A DNA stretch of 64,000 nucleotides from a virus (lineage: Duplodnaviria > Caudoviricetes): positions 96,001 through 160,000 of the IMG/VR virus record IMGVR_UViG_3300010346_000241; one strand, written 5' to 3'. The notes under the pieces were generated by a model that worked only from the letters and a program-made list of their open reading frames with translations, was not told the origin of the DNA and did not search any database. Positions 19,343 through 64,000 of this stretch are shown in pieces. Within the stretch, counting starts at the first letter, position 1. The number at the start of each line of letters is the position of its first letter. The position numbers and the translations under genes were made by a program.

Positions 19343-19576
19343 TTATACATATGCATTCAAACCTCTTAGACATATATTAGCATACAGTCCCATTGACAGA
19401 GGTCTAGGAGCTTTAGGATTCTTCCAATCTATATCGAACTCAGCACCACAGTTCTTACACCGCATACACCGAGCTTCTTTACCTTTACGAGTACTTACTA
19501 CTATGATCGCTAATCCATCAGTACCACAATTCGTACAGTACTTAGGTCCAGCTATCTTGAAAAGTGGCTCTGACAT
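19343..19576 (-). CDS. Small zinc-ribbon protein
   Basis: CTNC...CKNC; AAAGGAAG before ATG 19576. Confidence 0.75.
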   Translation of the reverse strand: MSEPLFKIAGPKYCTNCGTDGLAIIVVSTRKGKEARCMRCKNCGAEFDIDWKNPKAPRPLSMGLYANICLRGLNAYV

Positions 19577-19630
19577 ATTATCACTTCCTTTCATCAGATA
19601 GTTACGCATACTGTAAAAGACGAGAATGAC

Positions 19631-19654
19631 GCCCGAGGGAGCGCTCCCTCGGGC
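19631..19654. terminator. Strong GC hairpin after the holin
   Basis: GCCCGAGGGAG/CTCCCTCGGGC. Confidence 0.65.
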
Positions 19655-19680
19655 ACCACTTATGTTCATATTCACCAGGA

Positions 19681-20115
19681 TCATGTTTTCGCATCGTCTT
19701 CGGATTGATCGATTGGGGTATCGATCTCCTCTGATGTGGTAGCATCCAGGAGAACGTCATTGGAATCTTCGCCAGTCTTAGGGTCACTGGCAGACCCATA
19801 GTGAGATATGATCTCGGCAATGTCTATATCGAACCGTTTCTTCACAATTACACAGAGAGACTCATAAAGGCCAACAGAGGACAGTCCCAGGAATGCCAGT
19901 ATAATCACCTTTGACACTGGGTCTTTATCGTCAAAAGTTCCTGGTATCGCGAATCCAGCAATAATGGCGACTACGACATTACTAAAAGGGATATACTTGT
20001 TAGGGAACTTCTTGAAGGTACCTTTAAGAAACATACCTACTGTGAGACATGCTAATGATATGATTATACTATTGCCAAGAAATAGTTCGGAGACAGACGT
20101 TATGAAGTTATCCAT
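19681..20115 (-). CDS. Putative holin (KYIP-type)
   Basis: Three hydrophobic segments, NKYIP and GLSSVGLYE motifs typical of Bacillota phage holins, acidic tail; late promoter at 20134-20145. Confidence 0.7.
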   Translation of the reverse strand: MDNFITSVSELFLGNSIIISLACLTVGMFLKGTFKKFPNKYIPFSNVVVAIIAGFAIPGTFDDKDPVSKVIILAFLGLSSVGLYESLCVIVKKRFDIDIAEIISHYGSASDPKTGEDSNDVLLDATTSEEIDTPIDQSEDDAKT

Positions 20116-24750: not shown

Positions 24751-25158
24751 TTAGAAGTATGATACTTCTGCCATATGCTGTCTGGCTTCCTCGGCCGCCT
24801 CTGCTTCAGTCATGCTCGTAGTCACTAATGGATTCTCTCCATCAGCTTCGAACTCATCCTTAGCATAGACTTTGAGGTAATCTAATGCGACATCCTTGAC
24901 ATACTCTAATGGTACTACACGTATCACTCCAGGAATGCCAATGAGATCACTCAGATTGATTGCACCAAATCGCTGCATACATGCACCACAGAAAGCGGTG
25001 CCGATATGGTTCTGTACATTAGTCCATCTCTGCACTCTTCCGTTCTTGTTGAGTGTTACATATTCAGTGTTGCGGAACTTAACGGTTAGCTTACCGTCCT
25101 TACCGCAACACGGACACTCTCCGATATTGATTACTTTGAATAAAGGTTCTGTCTTCAT
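24751..25158 (-). CDS. Zinc-ribbon protein
   Basis: CPCC...CGAC; N-terminal EPLFK shared with 19343-19576. Confidence 0.75.
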   Translation of the reverse strand: MKTEPLFKVINIGECPCCGKDGKLTVKFRNTEYVTLNKNGRVQRWTNVQNHIGTAFCGACMQRFGAINLSDLIGIPGVIRVVPLEYVKDVALDYLKVYAKDEFEADGENPLVTTSMTEAEAAEEARQHMAEVSYF

Positions 25159-25163
25159 AGTAA

Positions 25164-25406
25164 TCACTCCTTTACAGGATCAGTATACTTAACCTTACGG
25201 ATATCTCCTACTAGTACAGTCCTAGCATCTCCGTATACTTGAGTATACTTCTCTGGTCTGGTCTCCATAGCAGTGAAAGCCTTATAGTGTCCTCCCACTA
25301 ATACAGTACCAGGCTTATAGTTTCGGTTTCCTGCTTTTCTCTCAATCTCCTTGACCTTATCATAATGAGACTGAGAGAAGAGGAAGTAGCGTGTAAAGAT
25401 ATCCAC
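25164..25406 (-). CDS. Hypothetical protein, 80 aa
   Basis: GTG start with AAGGAGGTG upstream. Confidence 0.7.
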   Translation of the reverse strand: MDIFTRYFLFSQSHYDKVKEIERKAGNRNYKPGTVLVGGHYKAFTAMETRPEKYTQVYGDARTVLVGDIRKVKYTDPVKE

Positions 25407-27992: not shown

Positions 27993-28757
27993 TCATGTAA
28001 GATCTGCGTTACCTTTAGCGATGGCCTTCATCTCTTCGCCGAAAGTCATGGTCTTCTTCTTAAGACCACGCTCAACTGAGACTGTAGCTGTCGCATAAGT
28101 AACCCAGTGAGACTTATATGTCTCGAAGTCAATAGGTGTAGGAGCTTTACCTTCTGCTGTGAGTTCTGCATCATAGACTGTGCTGTCCTTGAACTCTACA
28201 GCGATAGCTTCATTCTCTGATGCATTTGCATCGAGCCAGTTGCAGATAGTCTTAACGACGAGAATAGTGATGCCGTTGAGAATCTCGACGTCATCGATTC
28301 TTCTGCAGTGTACATTGCTGAGTACGCCTCTGAGTGTGGGACCCCAAGGCATAATAGCCTGTATGTCATAGAATGGCTTCACTGCATCCTCAGGGATACC
28401 CTTGATATCCTCGGGATCGAAAGTGAAGTAGAAATTGTAGTTTCCATCGTCTCCCTCAGGGATCCACTCGGAAACGCAAGCCATAAGCATTGAACCTGCA
28501 CCCTTAGGATCTGAGAAGACGAGAGCTGTTTTGTGCTCTTTTGACTTCATTGCGTCAGCGCTCATGATACGTGCGCATGCGCCGATGAATGCTGAGAAAG
28601 GATATACGCTGTCATTACGCTGATCCTTCTCATTAGTGGTGTCGCTGATTACGAAATGTACAGCGTTGCCGTTTGCTCCGCTTCCTGTAAGCTCGCTGAT
28701 GAGTGCGCTTCTGAAAAGCTGGGGCATGTTTGTTTCTCTGAGTTCAAATGTTTTCAT
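27993..28757 (-). CDS. Hypothetical protein, 254 aa
   Basis: AAGGAGG RBS; both early-type (28817-28824) and late-type (28829-28840) motifs upstream. Confidence 0.8.
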   Translation of the reverse strand: MKTFELRETNMPQLFRSALISELTGSGANGNAVHFVISDTTNEKDQRNDSVYPFSAFIGACARIMSADAMKSKEHKTALVFSDPKGAGSMLMACVSEWIPEGDDGNYNFYFTFDPEDIKGIPEDAVKPFYDIQAIMPWGPTLRGVLSNVHCRRIDDVEILNGITILVVKTICNWLDANASENEAIAVEFKDSTVYDAELTAEGKAPTPIDFETYKSHWVTYATATVSVERGLKKKTMTFGEEMKAIAKGNADLT

Positions 28758-28857: not shown

Positions 28858-31203
28858 TTACTGAAGGAACGCGTTTGGGTTCTTTCTGAACTCTTCTATA
28901 GGGATGATACGGATGAATGCTCCTTTAGCGTTATACTTAACTGCTGTAGCCACCTTGCTACTAGTATAACTCATAAAAGGAACCAGCAGAATGTCGGTGT
29001 TCTTAGTAACCGAACCTTCTGAACAATCATGACCAGCCTTGTTGAGAGCCATCATCATGTCGACGTCTCTACAACCAGTGAATCTGATCACTTTACGATT
29101 TGTGTTGTTCATATCTCCACCTATTATAAGATTAGGGAGATTCCTAATAGCTACGAGATCTTCCATGAAAAGTGCTCTCTCCTCAAGGACGGTCTGTATT
29201 GTCTTATCTCCTATCTTATTAGGCAACGATTGCATCTTAACAGACAACGTCATATTGTCGAGACATATAAGATCATCCAATGTGACCTTCCTAAGTATCG
29301 CCTTCCATTTCGTTGACGCTAAGTTACTGAAACCAAGACTTCCAAGCACCATATAGTCGAACTTATTGTCGTTCAGGAACGTAGATAATTGATCTATGAA
29401 CTTCTGACCGTCAGCAGCTCCAAGTGCTTTGATTACTCTTTCTTTCGTCATACCATTTACAAGGTCATTGAATCCTCTGAGCTTGAGAACCTTAACAGAC
29501 TCTTCAGCGAATCCTTTGAAACCGAGTTTGGCTATCATATCTGTTACCCTGGCTAAAGCTCTTCCAGGGCATGCGAGATTCACACATCTAGCGTTCTTGT
29601 CAGAGAACTCTAATGGTGTACCACAACATGGACAGTTCTTTGGGAACTCTTCCATTGGCATTGGGTTATATTGATTCTCTACAACATTGGCCTTCTCGAT
29701 GTATACCATGACATCGTTTCTGAACTCTGCTTGTAAGATATCACCCTTACGAAGACCAAGCTCATAGAAACGCTTCCATGAATGTCCAGAAGACTTAGTG
29801 TTGATTCCTCCGAAGAACTCTACTGGATTGTAGTTGATCATCGGAGTGATTGTTCCTTCTTTACCAACAGTATAGTCATACCCAATGAATTGAGTAAGCT
29901 TCTTCATGGTATTGAATTTGATCGCTATAGAGAACTGGTTTACTGAGTTCTTTCTACCAAGCTGAGCTCTTATCACAGGATCAACATAAGATACTACTAC
30001 ACCGTCATACTTGAACGGTATATCGTTTCTCATCTCTGCTGCTTCCTGTACGAACTTATATACTTGATACAGAACAGTCTGATAGTTTCCATGTATAACA
30101 GCATAACTCATATAGATACCGTTTGCATAGAACTTGTTCATGAACTCTATCTCTTCTATCCTATTCATCTTACCAAGATTCATAGTATTATCAGCCTTTG
30201 TTACACCGTCATCAGTGCTAAGACTTGTCTGAAGAGGAACGAGTGTGATATAGTGAGCATACTCACGAGCATCGGCTCTACTAGTAAGACCGATTACCGC
30301 ATTACGAGGGCTCGCATATCTTATATTATACTTTCTGTCGAGTTCCTGAAGAGCAAAGTTGTCTATTATCGCTTCAAACTTCATACCGAACTGCTCTATA
30401 GGACCGACTTTCTTAGCATACTCTTTGGCTTCCATAAACGGATAGCCCTGAAGCACTGAGGTAAGGTCTGTTGCCTTATCCAATCCAGTATCTCCTCTAG
30501 TTCTGGCAGATATTACCTCATCAGTTACATCTGCCTCTACAGAGATTCCATCATACTTAAGCTCACACACAAGAGTTATGTCGTTAGGATCGACTATACC
30601 CTCCTGTATATGCTTAGCCAGGAAGTCTCTTTCAAAGATAACCACATTAGGATTATCCCAAGCTTGTCTTTCTACTGCCTCCTGATTGAGCGTGAACTTA
30701 GCCTTATCAAGAGTTCCTACAAGCTGAGGATAGTTGTGTGCTGTGTTGCGGATACGTTTAGAAGCTTTAACTCCCTCTCCACCGAAATATGCTCTTCGAT
30801 ACGTGTTGTTGGAATAGATATCGTTTCTGAAGAGCATGTCATAATTGTTGTCTACCATTTGGAAGAGCGGTACTGGTCTCTGAGGAATGACGTTGTTGAT
30901 AGTCTCTCCATGAGGCTCGAAGTGTACTGGCTCTGCACCAACCTGATAGTTAGGATTGTATCCTTTATACATCTGAAGAAGGTTATCATACACTCCATCT
31001 TCCAGTACAAGGATAGATCTGTCTGTATTGTTGTAGATGATGTTACTGATATGCAGTATATCACCCACAATCTCAACCTCATGTGGTTCAAGATACTTAA
31101 GACCTAAAAACCTCACAACATGAGCGTTGATGTTCCTGATAGTTTCAGGTGTAAGATCAGAAGCATCTCCCTGAAGAAGATGCTGAATGATCTGCTTATA
31201 CAT
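28858..31203 (-). CDS. ligA: NAD-dependent DNA ligase
   Basis: ELKYDG adenylation motif, TRGD, DGVVV, AIKF, CPCCG...C...C Zn finger, C-terminal BRCT (FTG...SVTKNTDILL). Confidence 0.93.
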   Translation of the reverse strand: MYKQIIQHLLQGDASDLTPETIRNINAHVVRFLGLKYLEPHEVEIVGDILHISNIIYNNTDRSILVLEDGVYDNLLQMYKGYNPNYQVGAEPVHFEPHGETINNVIPQRPVPLFQMVDNNYDMLFRNDIYSNNTYRRAYFGGEGVKASKRIRNTAHNYPQLVGTLDKAKFTLNQEAVERQAWDNPNVVIFERDFLAKHIQEGIVDPNDITLVCELKYDGISVEADVTDEVISARTRGDTGLDKATDLTSVLQGYPFMEAKEYAKKVGPIEQFGMKFEAIIDNFALQELDRKYNIRYASPRNAVIGLTSRADAREYAHYITLVPLQTSLSTDDGVTKADNTMNLGKMNRIEEIEFMNKFYANGIYMSYAVIHGNYQTVLYQVYKFVQEAAEMRNDIPFKYDGVVVSYVDPVIRAQLGRKNSVNQFSIAIKFNTMKKLTQFIGYDYTVGKEGTITPMINYNPVEFFGGINTKSSGHSWKRFYELGLRKGDILQAEFRNDVMVYIEKANVVENQYNPMPMEEFPKNCPCCGTPLEFSDKNARCVNLACPGRALARVTDMIAKLGFKGFAEESVKVLKLRGFNDLVNGMTKERVIKALGAADGQKFIDQLSTFLNDNKFDYMVLGSLGFSNLASTKWKAILRKVTLDDLICLDNMTLSVKMQSLPNKIGDKTIQTVLEERALFMEDLVAIRNLPNLIIGGDMNNTNRKVIRFTGCRDVDMMMALNKAGHDCSEGSVTKNTDILLVPFMSYTSSKVATAVKYNAKGAFIRIIPIEEFRKNPNAFLQ

Positions 31204-31466: not shown

Positions 31467-31545
31467 GTCAAATACCTCCTTTCATAAGTTAGGTATGATG
31501 GTTTTCACCATCATACCCTTCTATATTATATGACCATTATAGACT

Positions 31546-33774
31546 TTACTCCCAAAGAGGTTTGAAGAGTAACTCCTGTTTCATTGGTTCGAAGAGCATC
31601 TTCTGAGGAACCTGCTCAAAAAGCATTTTCTGTGGTACCTGTTCGAAGAGCATCTTCTGAGGCATAATCTCAAAGAGCATCTTCTGATCTGCCATTTCAA
31701 ATACAGACTTAGTGACGATAGGTATCTTCTTAAACTTGAGTCTAAGTCCCATACCCTTCATGATAGCCTGAACCTTCTCTGCAGATCTGTTACGTGCATC
31801 CATATCGATATGAATATCTACATGGTATGGATCACCTAGAAGCATATCCATAACACTTCTTCGTGCTCTAGGTGACAGAGACATCAGCATAGCATTGATT
31901 ACTACTGTCTCTGAACTACAGTGGAGGAAGATCATTTTCTCCATCTCACCCCACTTAACTGGAGTCTTAGTGATAGCACATCTATACTCCTTAGATTCCT
32001 TACTCTTGCTATTCTCGTCCTTGATATTAGTCGAAGATGCAGAAGTAGCAGAGTGCTTTTCCTCAGCTTCCTGCTTAAGGATGTATATGAACTGTTCACC
32101 TACCGTAGATGGTTTACTAGACCATACAGTACGATAAGTTCCATCTGAGTTAGGGATAGAAACAAGGAGATGCTCCTGCTTAATGTAAGTGAACTTCTCA
32201 TAGAGCTTTCTGACCTTATCGAAGTCAACATATTCACTTATAGGAAGAAGAGAAGTATAGATTCCTTTAGGTCCTTCATTAGGATGAAGCATTGACTCTA
32301 TGAACAAGATAGCTTCCTGATCAGTATCAAAGTTATCGATTGCGGTCTTAAGGAAGTCTGCGAGATCTGGTGAAAGCTCTCTGTAGTACTGTTCAAGAAT
32401 ATCGAAGATCTCAACAGCATTGAGACAATTTGAATCAATGAAGTTAAGAATTCCTCTGCCGATACGATTGAGAGATAACTCTGAGAGCTGAGCTATATTA
32501 AGTCTGTTTACACAAGTACTCTCATCCCATATAATGTCGAGAGGAGTACCATCTGGAAGTTTTGGCATCTTCCAATCAGGCCATATGTCTGCGATAACGC
32601 CCTTACCACCGTTACGATTGGCAAGCTTATCACCTATAGATATAACATGATCACAGTACACAAGGAACTGTATTACCATATTACTAGAGATCTTACCATC
32701 TTCGATGAACTGTTTACCTTCAAGTCTACCCTTACAGGTATAGTACATCTCTTCAAGTTCGTACGATAACTTGTAGTCTTTGTTGTTGATGTAGTTAGCC
32801 ATCGCATCGACAAACTGTCTAGCGAAACGGTTCTCTTCATCATTATATGCTTTAAGCTGTCCCTCGAAGACGTTATAGAGTTCTCCCTCTTCACATCCTG
32901 GGGCTATCTGTTTGTTAGAATACACCTTAATATCTACGACTTTGCCTTCCTTAGGAACTATAGTCTCATCAGAGATCGTTATGTTTCTAAGAGACTCTCT
33001 AGATAAGGTGAATGCTGAGTTGTCTGAGTTGGCCTTTCTTATGGAGCAGAGTATACCATTCTTTGTCTCCTCTCCAAGATCAGGGAAGGCTTTATAAACA
33101 GTATCATCTCCATACAAGTTAAGAAGCACATCGTTATCATTCAACTTAACGGTTATGAGCTTTAACTCTGGAGAACTAAGCTTCTTACGGAAACCTTCTC
33201 TGATGACTACAGGGTCTTCAGTAGTTTGTGGAAGACTTGCATAAGTAGCAAGCGCATTTACACCAGCCTTATAGTTATCAAACTCATCAAAGCTGGTGCT
33301 CTTCTTATATACTTTTCCCTTAGGAATGACATCTCCTTCATTGAGAGAATCAAGATATTCATTGTTCCAAAGGAAACCGAATGTTTCGGTGTTGTGCTGA
33401 CAAACAGTACGAGTCACCATATTGAGCTCGTTACGTTCGTTTCTGATGATAAGATAGTACTCATGATCTGGATACATAGAGTATCTACTTATCTTAGCTA
33501 TTACTTCTTGTGAGTCTTCTGATCTTATAAACGCAGAAGACATGTGTCCATATCTGTTTTCTACTCCAGTACCAACAAGAGGAACTTCTGATTCCTTAGG
33601 ACACTTAGCTTGCTTCTTTTGGTTGGAGTGCATTATCTTTCGTGATGATGAATTCAGAGACTCACATGGCTGGAGTCCTGAACGACCAAGCATGAGATCT
33701 ATCTGATCCTGGCTGAATGTGGCATGTACCTCTGCAAATGCTCGGTCAAATTTTGGGTTCTGTTCCATTTTCAT
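31546..33774 (-). CDS. Non-virion RNA polymerase beta subunit, C-terminal part (AR9 gp089 / phiKZ gp71-73-like)
   Basis: GDKLANRNGGKGV, PDGTPLDII, NRLNIAQ, EKHSA, KWGEME. Confidence 0.88.
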   Translation of the reverse strand: MKMEQNPKFDRAFAEVHATFSQDQIDLMLGRSGLQPCESLNSSSRKIMHSNQKKQAKCPKESEVPLVGTGVENRYGHMSSAFIRSEDSQEVIAKISRYSMYPDHEYYLIIRNERNELNMVTRTVCQHNTETFGFLWNNEYLDSLNEGDVIPKGKVYKKSTSFDEFDNYKAGVNALATYASLPQTTEDPVVIREGFRKKLSSPELKLITVKLNDNDVLLNLYGDDTVYKAFPDLGEETKNGILCSIRKANSDNSAFTLSRESLRNITISDETIVPKEGKVVDIKVYSNKQIAPGCEEGELYNVFEGQLKAYNDEENRFARQFVDAMANYINNKDYKLSYELEEMYYTCKGRLEGKQFIEDGKISSNMVIQFLVYCDHVISIGDKLANRNGGKGVIADIWPDWKMPKLPDGTPLDIIWDESTCVNRLNIAQLSELSLNRIGRGILNFIDSNCLNAVEIFDILEQYYRELSPDLADFLKTAIDNFDTDQEAILFIESMLHPNEGPKGIYTSLLPISEYVDFDKVRKLYEKFTYIKQEHLLVSIPNSDGTYRTVWSSKPSTVGEQFIYILKQEAEEKHSATSASSTNIKDENSKSKESKEYRCAITKTPVKWGEMEKMIFLHCSSETVVINAMLMSLSPRARRSVMDMLLGDPYHVDIHIDMDARNRSAEKVQAIMKGMGLRLKFKKIPIVTKSVFEMADQKMLFEIMPQKMLFEQVPQKMLFEQVPQKMLFEPMKQELLFKPLWE
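31561..31710 (-). repeat. 27-bp (9-aa) tandem repeat QKMLFE x4 plus QELLF at the RNAP beta C-terminus
   Basis: Direct translation; copies differ at synonymous positions. Confidence 0.9.
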
Positions 33775-33853: not shown

Positions 33854-35113
33854 TTATGCTACGATATCTTCTTCTCTACTATTGAGTTTCATGTAGAGCT
33901 CCTGAGTGATGCCAGTAGCCTTAATGAACTCCTCGTCAGTAGCATTATCCATTCTATGGAGCATATTGTGGAGAACCTTGGTACAAGTGTCTAGGAAGAC
34001 ATTCTTGAACTCCTCGTTCTCAAAGAGTTTCTTCTTGAAGTTCTTCTGAGCGAACTTAACGTCCTGATAGCCGTCGATGTAAAGGTAAGCACCTGCACCC
34101 TTAATGAAACCATTGTCATTGAGCATATTGTAGAGTGTGAGGATTACATCAAAGCCGATGTCCTGATTGAAGATCATATCTGTACTTGCACCTGCACGGT
34201 TAGTGCGAGACTTAACCATAGTGATCAGTACGTGATTACCAGAAATACCAAGACCCTTATCTTCAGTAAGCTTGGTGTTATCATCAAGTCTGAAGATATT
34301 GTTTGCGATATAGAACGGAGTTACACCGCCAGGACAAGTCTCATCCTGCTTAAGATAGATATTCTGACCCTTAGAATGAGTGAATGCATTGATCTCAATC
34401 TTCTGGGTGATATGGTTAACGATGAAGACGATGATATTAGCTGCCTTACAGAGAGGAACTATTCTTCTCATTGTAGTAGCTATCATCTTAGCAGCTGCTG
34501 TAGTAGACATCTGACCACTAAGCTCTTCTTCCTGAGTCATTTTCTCAGGCATCAGCATAGCCAGTGAGTCAAGGATATACACTGTTGGCTGCATCTTGTA
34601 GATACGGTTACCTCTACTGTCAAACTTGCCAGTATCATAGGTAAATTCATCTGCATGCTCTGTCTTCTTGTCATAGATGATCTTGATAGACTTATAGAAA
34701 GTCTCAGTGCTGATACCTGCATTACGAACGATCATCTTTGTGTTAAGCTCATCAGGTGTCATGCCTGTAAGGATCTCATCACGACGACGTGTGATACCGC
34801 CCTCGATACTATCCTCGAAGATAGCTCCCTTATCGAAGCCTCTGATTATATTGCCTGCGGCCTGCTTGATGAATGTGGACTTACCACATCCTGAACGACC
34901 GATTACCATATTGATTGAGCCGTCTACGATGCCTACGCTATCGTACTCGAACTCTATACCTCTATTATTGTCAGTCACTCTGATGATCTGACCATTGAGG
35001 TAGTCAACGTTTGGGAAGCCAGTGCTGTACTGAACGTCAAACACTGCCTCAGTTTTCATGCCATAGTCCTTGGAATCCTTAACTGCATTCCTGAACATTT
35101 CTGTTAGTAACAT
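33854..35113 (-). CDS. uvsX: UvsX/RecA-like recombinase
   Basis: STGFPNVDYLNG, GRSGCGKST, YILDSLA, VNHI, VKSR, KGAGAYL. Confidence 0.85.
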   Translation of the reverse strand: MLLTEMFRNAVKDSKDYGMKTEAVFDVQYSTGFPNVDYLNGQIIRVTDNNRGIEFEYDSVGIVDGSINMVIGRSGCGKSTFIKQAAGNIIRGFDKGAIFEDSIEGGITRRRDEILTGMTPDELNTKMIVRNAGISTETFYKSIKIIYDKKTEHADEFTYDTGKFDSRGNRIYKMQPTVYILDSLAMLMPEKMTQEEELSGQMSTTAAAKMIATTMRRIVPLCKAANIIVFIVNHITQKIEINAFTHSKGQNIYLKQDETCPGGVTPFYIANNIFRLDDNTKLTEDKGLGISGNHVLITMVKSRTNRAGASTDMIFNQDIGFDVILTLYNMLNDNGFIKGAGAYLYIDGYQDVKFAQKNFKKKLFENEEFKNVFLDTCTKVLHNMLHRMDNATDEEFIKATGITQELYMKLNSREEDIVA

Positions 35114-43592: not shown

Positions 43593-44159
43593 TTACTTCT
43601 TCTTGTCTGATACCCAATCAGGGCAAGGTGACTTGACCTTGAGTCCTTCATGAGCAGGTACGATAGATTCAGCGTTCTCGTAGCGGATAGAACCATCCTG
43701 GTTAACGCCGACCTTCTTAGGATATCTCTTAGTTGTCATCTCAACGTCCTTGAGCTGAATAGAGATATTGCTCTTCTCTGTACCACCGAGATTTACACTT
43801 CTGCCTGTTCTGAGAGCTGTGTTTACGAAGTCCTTAGAGAGCTTTACCATTGTTTCAGCATCGCTCTTCTTAGCTTCGTATGTGTCAACGAGTGTCTCAG
43901 CCTCAGCCTTAGGCATCTTTGTTGTTGCAGACACAATGCCTGCTACCATTCCTCTGAACTCAGTTGCAGGACAGTGCTGTGTAACACCGCTGTTTGAGTA
44001 CTCAGAGTACTGGAAGTTTCTGTCGTTAAGCATTGCTTTCATTACTCTTACTTCATCTCTTGTAGAAGCACTCTTCTGAGTGAGATGAGTCTTGATGTCA
44101 TTGACGAGAGCGTTAACTCCCATCTCTTCTGTGTTGGCTGTAGCATTCTTGTTTGCCAT
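43593..44159 (-). CDS. HU/IHF-like DNA-binding protein (divergent)
   Basis: FVNTALRTGRSVNLGG...IVPAHEGLKVK resembles the HU body and arm; AGGAGG before ATG 44159. Confidence 0.5.
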   Translation of the reverse strand: MANKNATANTEEMGVNALVNDIKTHLTQKSASTRDEVRVMKAMLNDRNFQYSEYSNSGVTQHCPATEFRGMVAGIVSATTKMPKAEAETLVDTYEAKKSDAETMVKLSKDFVNTALRTGRSVNLGGTEKSNISIQLKDVEMTTKRYPKKVGVNQDGSIRYENAESIVPAHEGLKVKSPCPDWVSDKKK

Positions 44160-44163
44160 AGTT

Positions 44164-44346
44164 TTAGTCCTCCTGTTTAGTTGTAGTTTCATCGAACCTA
44201 TCTCTAGGATCGATCCTTATAAATGGGTTGACTGGTTTACTTTTACCATTAGTCCTAAGGAAGTCGTTGATCTCGTTTGGTGTCATTGAAGCGAGATGCT
44301 CTATGAAACTTCCCTTTTCGTAATGACTTTTAGTTGACTTTCCCAA
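44164..44346 (-). CDS. Small hypothetical protein, 60 aa
   Basis: AAAGGAG RBS; AACA-taatag-TA at 44373-44384. Confidence 0.65.
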   Translation of the reverse strand: MGKSTKSHYEKGSFIEHLASMTPNEINDFLRTNGKSKPVNPFIRIDPRDRFDETTTKQED

Positions 44347-46260: not shown

Positions 46261-46343
46261 TCAACACTAAGGGACCTGAGCAATACGCTCAGGTTTCTTT
46301 TTTGTTGAAACATCATGGTAAATACCTGAAAGGAGGCATTTGT

Positions 46344-47162
46344 ATGGATTACAACAACAAGCACCAAGAAGTTGAGGATACTAATCCTCTTGACACCTTC
46401 ACTCCGAATGATATTGATATAGTCACTATTCCAAATGACATACCAGAGTACGGTGTCCAGGACTATGATATGTTTGATGAGAAGGATATGGTTAGGTATA
46501 TGAAAGACCTTGAGAGATTTGTTAGGCAGTCTCTCGAATACAAGAGCATGGTACAGTATCTCAGGGAGTATATGGACATGAGAAACTGTGCATTTCTGCC
46601 TAACGTATCGAATGAGTTCACTCCTAAGATAAGGATAGAGATTCATCACTCTCCTATAACACTCTATGAGATCTGCAGTATCATCATAAGGAAGAGAATG
46701 GCTCTTGGAGAACTCCTTACTATAGAAGCAGTAGCATATGAGGTACTCTATGTACACTACTGTCTGATGGTAGGTCTTATACCTCTGTCAGAGACTGTAC
46801 ATGAGCTTGTACACAATCAGTATATCTATGTTCCTGCGAACAGAGTATATGGTTACTACAATGCATTTGTGGAACAGTATCATGACTATATAGACGTTGA
46901 ACTTCTCGATAAGTTAAAGATGATTGAGAAGCTTGCACAGGATCAAGTCTATAACGACTATATGCAGATACTTGAAAAGAAATATATTGCGATTGACATG
47001 GGAGACAACTCTCAAGTAGACCAGCTTGGGGCTACTCGTGAACTGCTTAAACAGCGTCTGTCGATTTTAAGAGATGGTGACGCTAGTTATACTGCTCCTC
47101 CTCCACAAGCTCCTGTAGAGCAACCTGTATATGTTCCATTGTTCCGTTCTCCGTGGGATTAA
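46344..47162 (+). CDS. Hypothetical protein with HNH-like motif
   Basis: IEIHH...LIPLSETVHELVH; AAAGGAGG before ATG 46344; late promoter at 46309-46320. Confidence 0.6.
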   Translation: MDYNNKHQEVEDTNPLDTFTPNDIDIVTIPNDIPEYGVQDYDMFDEKDMVRYMKDLERFVRQSLEYKSMVQYLREYMDMRNCAFLPNVSNEFTPKIRIEIHHSPITLYEICSIIIRKRMALGELLTIEAVAYEVLYVHYCLMVGLIPLSETVHELVHNQYIYVPANRVYGYYNAFVEQYHDYIDVELLDKLKMIEKLAQDQVYNDYMQILEKKYIAIDMGDNSQVDQLGATRELLKQRLSILRDGDASYTAPPPQAPVEQPVYVPLFRSPWD

Positions 47163-61906: not shown

Positions 61907-62367
61907 AGTATAATAACTCATCTACCTACGTCAACTCTGCACAACAGGTTCCTTCAAGGACCTGTACTTTGGATGACTTTGTTAATGCTAAGCCATCTGG
62001 TCAGTTGTCATACTACTATCTTTCTCTGTTAGAGCCTGATACAGCGCATCACATCGAGTACGATGTATACAATGTCCTGTCAGACTACATACAGGATCTG
62101 AAAGATATGTCTACTAAGGTCAAGTTATCTGAGCAAGAGTATCTCAGATATCGTTTTAGACCTAAGCTCTTAGCCGACTTCCTCTATGGAAACGGAGAGC
62201 TCTATTACATTATACTGTGGCTCAATGACATTTGGTCTGTTAAAGACTTCAACTTCAGAGAAGTTCGTCTTATCTCAAAGTCTCAAATGTCTCAAGCACT
62301 CAGTAGTATCAATGGCTCCGAGAAGTCATTTATTGACTCCTACAACCAGTCCGCCTCTGCTACGTGA
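61903..62367 (+). CDS. Baseplate wedge (T4 gp53 / LysM-like) protein
   Basis: YRFRPKLLADFLYGNGELYYIILWLN. Confidence 0.65.
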   Translation: MKYNNSSTYVNSAQQVPSRTCTLDDFVNAKPSGQLSYYYLSLLEPDTAHHIEYDVYNVLSDYIQDLKDMSTKVKLSEQEYLRYRFRPKLLADFLYGNGELYYIILWLNDIWSVKDFNFREVRLISKSQMSQALSSINGSEKSFIDSYNQSASAT

Positions 62368-63999
62368 GGCTTCATACTCTTGTGGAGTCATAACTTCGAA
62401 CAGGTTTCTCTGTTCTATTATTCTGAAGAGAGGTGTATATAGTTCACCCTTCTTGCACTTCATATCTTCGTACTGAGAGCCTTCTATCTTGCTAAGACGG
62501 TTGATCTCTCTAGTACTAGCTATGTATGGATACATATCTATTCCATAGTTTGTCTTAAACTCCTTATTGAAGTCATCGACAAACCTCTGTTTGATAGAAC
62601 CCAAAGGATCAAGCATTAACGTATACAAGAATGAATATCGATCAGGTGTAAGAGTGCACTTAGTTGCACTCTTGCTCTTTGATGTCTTACCCTTCTTATA
62701 CTTATTCTTCTCATCTTCAGTCATCTTATCGAGATTTGGCATGACAGTACCACCTATAACAGTAGTCTTGCTCTTATCCTCGATACCTGCTTCTTTGAGA
62801 AGGTTCTTCTTGGTTGTCTCAGTAACTGCTGAGTTGAACCTATTAGAATTGTCTGGTATCATAGCTTCATCATCCACCATAATACCTTCATCATCACGCA
62901 TCTGCATCTCTACGAGTGTCTTCTTATGAACAGGCTCAGGTAAGCCTACATCTTCCATAAGACGCATAGAGAAATTGTTTGTGTAAGGATGATGAATGCA
63001 TCTCTTCTTAGTATTGATAAGAGGAGACTCTAAGTCTGCCTGGTATCTATTCTTAGCAAGTTTGATACCAAGGTACTTACGATGATTAACATCGAACTCT
63101 GGCACTATCATGAATGCCGCGTCGAGGTTATCAAGTATCTTCATAGACTCAGCTATGTTGTCTCTTCCGAGAAGATCTACAAGATCATCTGTTCCACTTT
63201 CTCTAGCTTCATCTATGTTTTTGTTTGCGCTTCTGTTGAACTGAGCTGCTGTAAGAACTGGAATGTGAAGCTCAGTTGCTATAGTCTTGAGCTCATTTGT
63301 TACAGCGCCAAGTCTAAGTCTCTCTTCAGATGCAGTAAATCTGTTAACTGAACGAATTCTGTTAAGATAGTCCAGAATGACACAGATAACTTCATATCCT
63401 GCTTCTTCAAGATCGTCTACTAAGTCGTAGATATATGAAGTATCCACAGACTCATTAGGCTTATATTTGACTACGATGTCTATCGGGTTGTCTGGTGTTA
63501 CTGCAAGACCGCCCTGTCTCATAAGCTGAATAGACTCGTTTACATCGTGATCTATAAGACTACCCTGTTCTGTTACCATCGAGAACTGACGTGACAGAGT
63601 TTCCTTAGGATGGTCTTCCATAGTCAGATATACTACACAAGGTGTCTTCGTAGGATCTTTACACTTGTAAGATCTATTGTACATCTTGATCTGATATGCT
63701 AAATTAACTAGGGTTGATGACTTACCTTCACCTTGGAGACCAAAGATACAGTAAGTTCTATCGGACTGGAAACCCCCTGCAAGAAGAATATTAAGTCCGA
63801 CCATTCCTGTAGCAAGTTTGTTGCCTGGGCTAGATAAGTCTGCATGGGTGTACATTACATAGTCTTCGAATATTCCCTCTTGCAGACAATACATTTGTTC
63901 ATCCGTCTTCTCTATACGATGACGACGGATAGCATTCTTGCTGTCATTTACAAGTCCCTTCCATTCTTCTACTATAGCAGGTTTCTGGTTAGGACTAGC
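62326..63999 (-). CDS. dnaB: DnaB-like replicative helicase (5' end outside window)
   Basis: GLQGEGKS, YLTME, LDYLNRI, ELKTIATELHIPVLTAAQFNR, KNR; frame open to the window edge. Confidence 0.9.
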   Translation of the reverse strand, partial: ASPNQKPAIVEEWKGLVNDSKNAIRRHRIEKTDEQMYCLQEGIFEDYVMYTHADLSSPGNKLATGMVGLNILLAGGFQSDRTYCIFGLQGEGKSSTLVNLAYQIKMYNRSYKCKDPTKTPCVVYLTMEDHPKETLSRQFSMVTEQGSLIDHDVNESIQLMRQGGLAVTPDNPIDIVVKYKPNESVDTSYIYDLVDDLEEAGYEVICVILDYLNRIRSVNRFTASEERLRLGAVTNELKTIATELHIPVLTAAQFNRSANKNIDEARESGTDDLVDLLGRDNIAESMKILDNLDAAFMIVPEFDVNHRKYLGIKLAKNRYQADLESPLINTKKRCIHHPYTNNFSMRLMEDVGLPEPVHKKTLVEMQMRDDEGIMVDDEAMIPDNSNRFNSAVTETTKKNLLKEAGIEDKSKTTVIGGTVMPNLDKMTEDEKNKYKKGKTSKSKSATKCTLTPDRYSFLYTLMLDPLGSIKQRFVDDFNKEFKTNYGIDMYPYIASTREINRLSKIEGSQYEDMKCKKGELYTPLFRIIEQRNLFEVMTPQEYEASRSRGGLVVGVNK

Positions 64000-64000
64000 T

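Follow-up and report, generated by a model that had tools for sequence, protein, structure and literature searches.

A lineage-specific short peptide, repeated on a non-virion RNA polymerase subunit and carried by replication and repair proteins, is a probable docking tag in AR9-like jumbo phages

Short peptides that bring many enzymes to one partner are a recurrent solution in DNA metabolism. In the PCNA PIP-box ‘tool-belt’ of archaea and eukaryotes, and in the binding of herpesvirus polymerase tails to UL42/UL44, one short motif serves one hub, and the C-terminal tip of the bacterial single-stranded DNA-binding protein (SSB) is a short terminal peptide that organises replication and repair proteins. 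The BRC repeats of BRCA2, which bind RAD51, are tandem copies of a short Phe-centred motif, with related single motifs on other partners. Among phages, T4 has a sliding clamp, gp45, to which gp55, gp33 and the DNA polymerase gp43 attach by hydrophobic peptides at their C-termini (PMC7892883, PMC2988020), and MuC of phage Mu uses the host clamp for late genes (PMC12867686), the bacterial clamp-binding motif being of the QL[S/D]LF type (reviewed in PMC9690074). Here we describe a tandem array of such peptides at the C-terminus of a non-virion RNA polymerase (nvRNAP) beta subunit, encoded in a 64,000-nucleotide window (positions 96,001 to 160,000 of IMG/VR record IMGVR_UViG_3300010346_000241) of a complete 229,448-bp phage record, hereafter G000. 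On balance, we favor the reading that this tail is a multivalent docking tag for a hub common to replication, repair and late-transcription proteins.

The gene at 31546..33774 on the minus strand of the window is a single open reading frame (ORF) of 742 codons, and its 742-residue product is the C-terminal half of the nvRNAP beta subunit (beta-C). It matches PHROG 3295 (‘RNA polymerase beta subunit’) over residues 29-681 (E 9e-92) and Pfam RNA_pol_Rpb2_6 (PF00562). Its closest cultured relatives are AR9/PBS1, at 30% identity, where AR9 gp088 is annotated in RefSeq as the non-virion RNA polymerase (RNAP) beta C-terminal half, and the gene order UvsX, beta-C, NAD ligase is the same here and in AR9. 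The first-pass annotation of this DNA had named the subunit correctly, and its account of a five-unit QxxLF tail is borne out by the last 53 residues of the ORF. Five tandem nine-residue units, which we call tags, occupy residues 697-741 (31552..31686, minus strand), four of QKMLFE type and a terminal one with an LF.PLW-form end (QELLFKPLWE). Directly after the last conserved core element, and preceding these five, is a degenerate sixth unit of VFEMA type (residues 690-696; 31687..31707, minus strand) that aligns with the first tag of homologous tails.

Tandem Repeats Finder resolves the tail DNA into a 27-nt period with 3.4-4.2 copies at 71-77% identity. Such a structure could come from slippage, and the tail might then be a low-complexity sequence of no specific function; alternatively, the tail might fold back and belong integrally to the RNAP. 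The nucleotide differences among the four QKMLFE cores are all synonymous, however (AAG/AAA, CTC/CTT, TTT/TTC, GAG/GAA), as the first-pass annotation had noticed, and natural variants extend the observation. Contigs from a bovine-gut DNA run and from a wastewater RNA library span the tail with zero indels (coverage of the beta-C gene by RNA-library contigs being no proof of transcription), and all seven substitutions between 31546 and 31714 in these contigs from two other samples are synonymous, third-position changes; near-identical DNA is present in runs from bovine, sheep and goat gut as well as from sludge and wastewater. Because tag codons vary synonymously between units, loci and natural variants, the tail is, judged from its sequence, under selection at the level of the peptide and not a product of recent DNA copying. 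For residues 687-742, AlphaFold2 returns a predicted local distance difference test score (pLDDT) of 31-40 and zero secondary structure, although a single-chain model is blind to contacts with other subunits, which leaves some room for a segment that folds back. Since the tail is unstructured in this model and is absent from the beta-C subunits of AR9/PBS1, Staphylococcus phage SA1, AgentSmith and phiR1-37, it is predicted to be disordered and to lie outside the RNAP core.

Alignments of beta-C with these cultured relatives end at about residue 680. The uncultured homologues, which range from 96% down to 34% identity and make up a large clade of AR9-like jumbo phages, are nearly all tailed, with 2-5 similar short hydrophobic units per tail. 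Among 103 distinct homologous tails, 86 hold at least two similar 5-mers and 44 hold at least three, versus 2 of 103 with at least three in a core segment of the same homologues, and shuffled tails average 1.47 copies. The tail repeat is far beyond chance, and its distribution indicates that the tail is ancient in the clade. Together with the synonymous-only changes and with the covarying occurrence of the same peptide on unrelated proteins, which we turn to below, the conservation of tails across these 103 homologues already disfavors slippage or folding back, which we find barely credible as explanations.

What the tails do not conserve is their sequence. The Q of the units is already gone at 75% identity, where the units are LFKPV-like; at 45-59% identity they are of NPF, SPF or LFT type, and in more distant homologues of VTF, MCK, IEF or AERVP type. 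The lineage cores that we have seen include NPFIH, KPFTI, NPFKRI, SPFVRV, MVTF and IIAERVP, and the trait shared by all lineage tails is a short hydrophobic strand-like core, often led by proline. An alignment of homologous C-termini, as the first-pass annotation had proposed, thus finds the tail and its variation in copy number, but the LF motif itself changes and the cultured relatives have no tail.

This turnover bears directly on the proposal that the QxxLF units dock in the hydrophobic cleft of the host DnaN beta-clamp, with clamps that stay behind on replicated DNA as the coupling to late transcription. In bacteria, the clamp pocket and the motif that binds it are widely conserved, whereas here Q and even LF vary in orthologous tails (NPF, SPF, VTF, MCK and AERVP cores), the cores of other lineages are unrelated, and the genome-by-genome covariation of the tags suggests a partner that evolves fast. 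The resemblance to the bacterial motif is real within its range: all five G000 units read Q-x-x-L-F, the fit to Qxx[LM]F is limited to G000 and relatives of at least about 85% identity, and the units are of pentapeptide size, end in LF and lie at termini and linkers of polymerases, ligase and repair proteins. The tagged set, in containing DNA polymerase, ligase and helicases, also resembles a clamp ‘tool-belt’, and clamp-coupled late transcription is established for T4 (gp45) and Mu (MuC) (PMC7892883, PMC2988020, PMC12867686). Six-frame searches of the complete 229-kb genome with PF00712, PF02768, PF00705, PF02916 and PF09116 gave zero matches to DnaN-, PCNA- or gp45-type clamps, although such profile searches could miss a very divergent clamp; this jumbo-phage group has been stated to be without a classical clamp (PMC7824862). 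Because phages that still share about 40% identity in their core proteins have different tags, whatever reads the tag must co-evolve with it, and this favors a phage-encoded hub over the conserved cleft of host DnaN. The system would act like the couplings of T4 and Mu, yet its peptide does not qualify as a clamp-binding motif, not being conserved in orthologues. We therefore abandon the first-pass reading of QxxLF as a DnaN-type motif, and regard docking on the host clamp as highly improbable.

Most telling is the recurrence of each lineage's own peptide on other proteins, which we describe first for G000. The pattern [LMP]F.P[LMVI]W has three matches in the proteome, all at most 12 residues from the C-terminal end (shuffle mean 0.003), and these lie in beta-C and in two small orphan proteins. 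Looser forms of the tag are found on the helicase, the C-terminal half of beta', the ligase, two zinc-ribbon proteins, the PHROG 12252 protein and a 254-residue protein, and the G000 carriers include three orphan proteins in total. Several of these genes, whose tags were recognised by sequence, lie in the window. The DnaB-like replicative helicase (706 residues; PHROG 19, Pfam divDNAB/DnaB_C) is encoded at 62326..64000 on the minus strand, its gene extending 446 nt past the window end, and has two tag copies near its C-terminus at about 62386-62439 (minus strand), at a tip that in other genomes varies together with the beta-C tail. The NAD-dependent DNA ligase (gene 28858-31203) has two internal copies in its N-terminal linker (30823..30873, minus strand), and the ligases of four other genomes bear their own genome's tag (G007, G017, G018 and G005), near the same N-terminal site in G007 and G017 and at residue ~466 in G005. 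A small zinc-ribbon protein (gene 24751-25167) is tagged at its N-terminus (25129..25149, minus strand), as are its G007 counterparts, with the G007 tag. A second zinc-ribbon protein (ORF 19343-19684) has a tag near its N-terminus (19550..19570, minus strand), and its true start is probably just upstream of that tag. The 254-residue protein (gene 27993-28757) is N-terminally tagged (28701..28727, minus strand), and its positional homologue in G007 has its own tag, but at the C-terminus.

The PHROG 12252 protein (286 residues, His-rich and HNH-like, the counterpart of AR9 gp241) is encoded at 46302..47162 on the plus strand and combines a proline-rich linker with a tag at its C-terminus (47130-47159, plus strand). 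This family has two paralogues per genome (gp241 and gp260 in AR9; here the gene at window 46302-47162 and one at G000 176306-177235), which share invariant His residues in an HH...H...H..H pattern suggestive of an HNH-like or metal-binding fold; the tag is on one paralogue only. A look-up of the protein in the ESM Atlas was uninformative.

We compared G000 with six related complete or near-complete genomes that we assembled, and named carrier families through PHROG, Pfam and AR9 homology. Every related genome has its own version of the tag on the same protein families. The best defined is the NPF-type tag of G007, with 24 sites in about 20 proteins, 18 of which lie within 40 residues of a terminus, against an expected 24%. 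On the side of transcription, the carriers are beta-C, beta-N, the C-terminal half of beta' and the fifth (promoter-specificity) subunit of the nvRNAP. On the side of replication and repair, they are the DnaB-like and superfamily 2 (SF2) helicases, both halves of the split family-B DNA polymerase (both tagged in several genomes), the NAD ligase and SbcD. The PHROG 12252 protein, zinc-ribbon proteins and several proteins of no assigned function complete the set. An unbiased scan of 77 core families, scoring the best match to the tags of the same genome versus those of other genomes, puts these families first: at its top are PHROG 12252, the fifth nvRNAP subunit, the SF2 helicase, SbcD and the exonuclease half of the DNA polymerase, followed by a 324-residue protein, the ligase, the beta' C-terminal half and the catalytic half of the DNA polymerase, and the capsid, tail and other structural families among the 77 score about 0, with no tag. 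The tag network is restricted to nucleic-acid enzymes.

The tags also covary between carriers. When the last 40 residues of the helicase are matched to the beta-C tails of all genomes, the best agreement of the helicase tip is with the beta-C tail of its own genome for 10 of the 16 independent lineages (permutation p <= 5e-5). Another nine lineages, at first thought to be tag-less, show helicase/beta-C agreement by inspection. Within orthologues, the position of the tag shifts among N-terminus, C-terminus and internal linkers, a mobility that would fit a modular short linear motif of 5-8 residues set in disordered termini and linkers of unrelated proteins. As the codons differ synonymously between loci, the similarity of the tags is evidently kept at the level of the peptide and not by recent copying of DNA.

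We suggest that beta-C ends in a disordered tail in which a short linear docking peptide is repeated for multivalent binding, each lineage having one version of the peptide, common to nearly all DNA- and RNA-transaction enzymes of the genome. All carriers would bind one common site on a single hub or scaffold, which would co-evolve with the tag and therefore most probably be phage-encoded. The tag would thereby bring the late (non-virion) RNAP together with the replisome and with the enzymes of recombination and repair at one place on phage DNA. Multivalency could arise in two ways, with the helicase hexamer presenting six single tags by oligomerisation, and the RNAP, with one beta per enzyme, reaching a comparable avidity through tandem copies, plus single tags on other nvRNAP subunits. 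We judge this explanation as a whole to be somewhat better than even. It retains the first-pass suggestion of multivalent docking that ties late RNAP to replication, which has strong comparative support in the shared tag on replisome, repair and nvRNAP proteins and in its genome-wise covariation, and drops the clamp as the partner.

Set against the described systems, the tag is closest to T4 in that one short hydrophobic terminal peptide is common to replication and late-transcription proteins, here four nvRNAP families and both DNA polymerase halves. It differs from T4 in having no detectable gp45/PCNA-like clamp, in placing the peptide in tandem on the catalytic RNAP subunits themselves, and in having more than 10 carrier families with a sequence that is lineage-specific instead of conserved. 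Like the PIP box, it would be a short disordered motif by which many DNA enzymes dock on a single putative hub, but PIP is conserved over vast distances while this motif turns over between phages with about 40% identical core proteins. Relative to the SSB tip the polarity is reversed, as here it is the enzymes that bear the tag, and the probable SSB of the phage has a separate conserved tip. Tandem copies on one protein with single motifs elsewhere recall the BRC repeats, although the repeat spacing here is 6-12 residues versus about 35, and for BRC-type docking on the recombinase we find that UvsX N-termini are conserved across genomes and have no covarying polymerisation motif. Full-text literature searches turned up no account of a comparable tag network in jumbo phages, in keeping with the first-pass statement that none was known for RNAPs of this kind.

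Several points weigh against a shared hub as we propose it. Pfam and PHROG scans of about 45 core proteins yielded no clamp, OB-hub or peptide-binding domain that could be the partner. A change of hub specificity needs ten or more carriers to change together, which is demanding and could favor association of tags with each other. The late-transcription link derives solely from the AR9 homology of the polymerase. The tags of G000 are less sharply defined than those of G007, and some ‘N-terminal’ positions are approximate, a simple ORF caller having set the gene starts. The first two of these lend themselves to a model of homotypic stickers, in which tags pair as short beta-strand zippers and the multivalent RNAP tail and helicase hexamer cross-link a replication-transcription condensate. 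Tags rich in beta-branched and aromatic residues, the fact that sequence identity within a genome is what counts, and the concentration of multivalency on few carriers would all suit such pairing. However, most tags contain proline and have charged flanks, which is more typical of pocket-binding motifs, and the many single-copy carriers would cap rather than extend a network, so that we consider homotypic pairing unlikely.

The restriction of the tag to one class of protein also speaks to two other possibilities. GroEL rings have seven hydrophobic peptide-binding grooves, and it is conceivable that the peptides bind the apical groove of the phage GroEL-like chaperonin and aid folding or assembly of split polymerases and large enzymes. 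The clade has a GroEL homologue among its core genes (G000 212038-213768; PHROG 5725, E 3e-63), and many carriers are halves of split enzymes. Yet the carriers are all nucleic-acid enzymes, down to zinc-ribbon proteins of 90-140 residues, the capsid and tail proteins are untagged, and AR9 has the chaperonin without the tags, all of which makes a chaperonin tag very unlikely. The chaperonin gene adjoins that of the fifth nvRNAP subunit, as in AR9. A degron, or a site at which a phage protease or modifying enzyme docks to switch the carriers on or off jointly, would account for the terminal location and the common carrier set, and the helicase and UvsX also end in small hydrophobic residues followed by Ala. 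Five tandem copies and copies in internal linkers would be unusual for degrons, however, and no tag-specific protease was recognised in the core-protein scans; we give a degradation or processing signal scant credence. The extreme C-termini just mentioned (VA, IA or AA in most genomes, at helicase loci L087-L104 and in UvsX) could be a further terminal signal independent of the tag.

If the docking-tag reading is correct, its hub may be among the core proteins that are not themselves tagged. No tag-less contrast set is available for a phylogenetic profile, as the lineages with helical-looking tails proved to be tagged too, and AR9 is without tags yet shares most core genes. Candidate untagged core proteins are a PC4/YdbC-like single-stranded DNA-binding protein, UvsX, the GroEL-like chaperonin, a weakly IHF/HU-like protein of 199 residues and others of no assigned function. 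A pooled complex prediction of tail residues 686-742 with two copies of the PC4-like SSB, UvsX and the GroEL-like apical region (186-420) scored 0.01, which is no evidence for or against binding. We rejected the 324-, 230- and 254-residue proteins and the PHROG 12252 protein as hubs on the ground that they are tagged carriers, and set aside a 148-residue gene product encoded between the polymerase and the beta' C-terminal half (a virion-protein homologue), a leucine-rich repeat protein (located in the structural module) and an 80-residue protein co-transcribed with beta-N (no clear structural relative).

Some of these proteins deserve separate mention. The UvsX-like recombinase (33854..35113, minus strand) is the conserved upstream neighbor of beta-C and has no tag. 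The PC4/YdbC-like protein (137 residues; G000 93133-93546, minus strand, outside the window) matches PDB 3pm7 (E 4.5e-6) and 2ltd (E 1.4e-5), has orthologues in all six related genomes, and is probably the phage SSB; its acidic tail ends in a tip of YYDP.EL form that is conserved across genomes as a second docking motif and does not covary. The basic 199-residue protein (window 43593-44192, minus strand) is 47-61% identical across genomes, and its C-terminal half bears a weak likeness to IHF/HU that falls short of significance (PDB profile E about 1.6); possibly this is a histone-like protein of the phage. The 80-residue protein (window 25164-25406, minus strand) directly follows nvRNAP beta-N in five of the six related genomes and is predicted by AlphaFold2 as beta-alpha-beta-beta-alpha-beta (pLDDT 91), a fold for which PDB offers no clear relative (best VIA Z 2.2, Foldseek E > 0.2). 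Downstream of beta-C, between its stop codon and the next minus-strand gene, an AT-rich TATAAT-like string (window 31519-31545) may be an internal promoter of the ligase operon. In AR9 itself, the DnaB-like helicase gp007 (locus L179:3583-5268) has an Asn-rich linker and then a Gly-Ile-Pro-Phe end like the bacterial SSB C-terminal tip, and SID[DE]V near the C-termini of the beta-N and beta-C halves only is a possible counterpart of the tag, with too few sites to judge.

No sliding clamp is known in phages of the AR9/phiKZ type, and the gathering of their split polymerases, helicases and nvRNAP on phage DNA still wants an explanation. With a single peptide code across this machinery, the peptide itself can be used to fish for the missing organiser. 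The repeated tags on the RNAP suggest that, with a multisubunit viral RNAP, late transcription is physically tied to replication, a kind of link so far known only for systems that use host RNAP (T4 and Mu). Ten or more proteins that change a common motif lineage by lineage offer an unusual example of concerted molecular co-evolution, and could supply orthogonal tag/receptor pairs for synthetic biology. More tentatively, we offer as a minority possibility that this clamp-less clade uses a hypervariable, phage-specific ‘address peptide’, read by a phage-encoded hub that is an analogue of a sliding clamp or factory scaffold, to assemble a private replication, recombination and late-transcription factory. 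If that were so, the fast change of the tag would reserve the factory for a single lineage and guard it, for example, against co-infecting relatives or host decoys.

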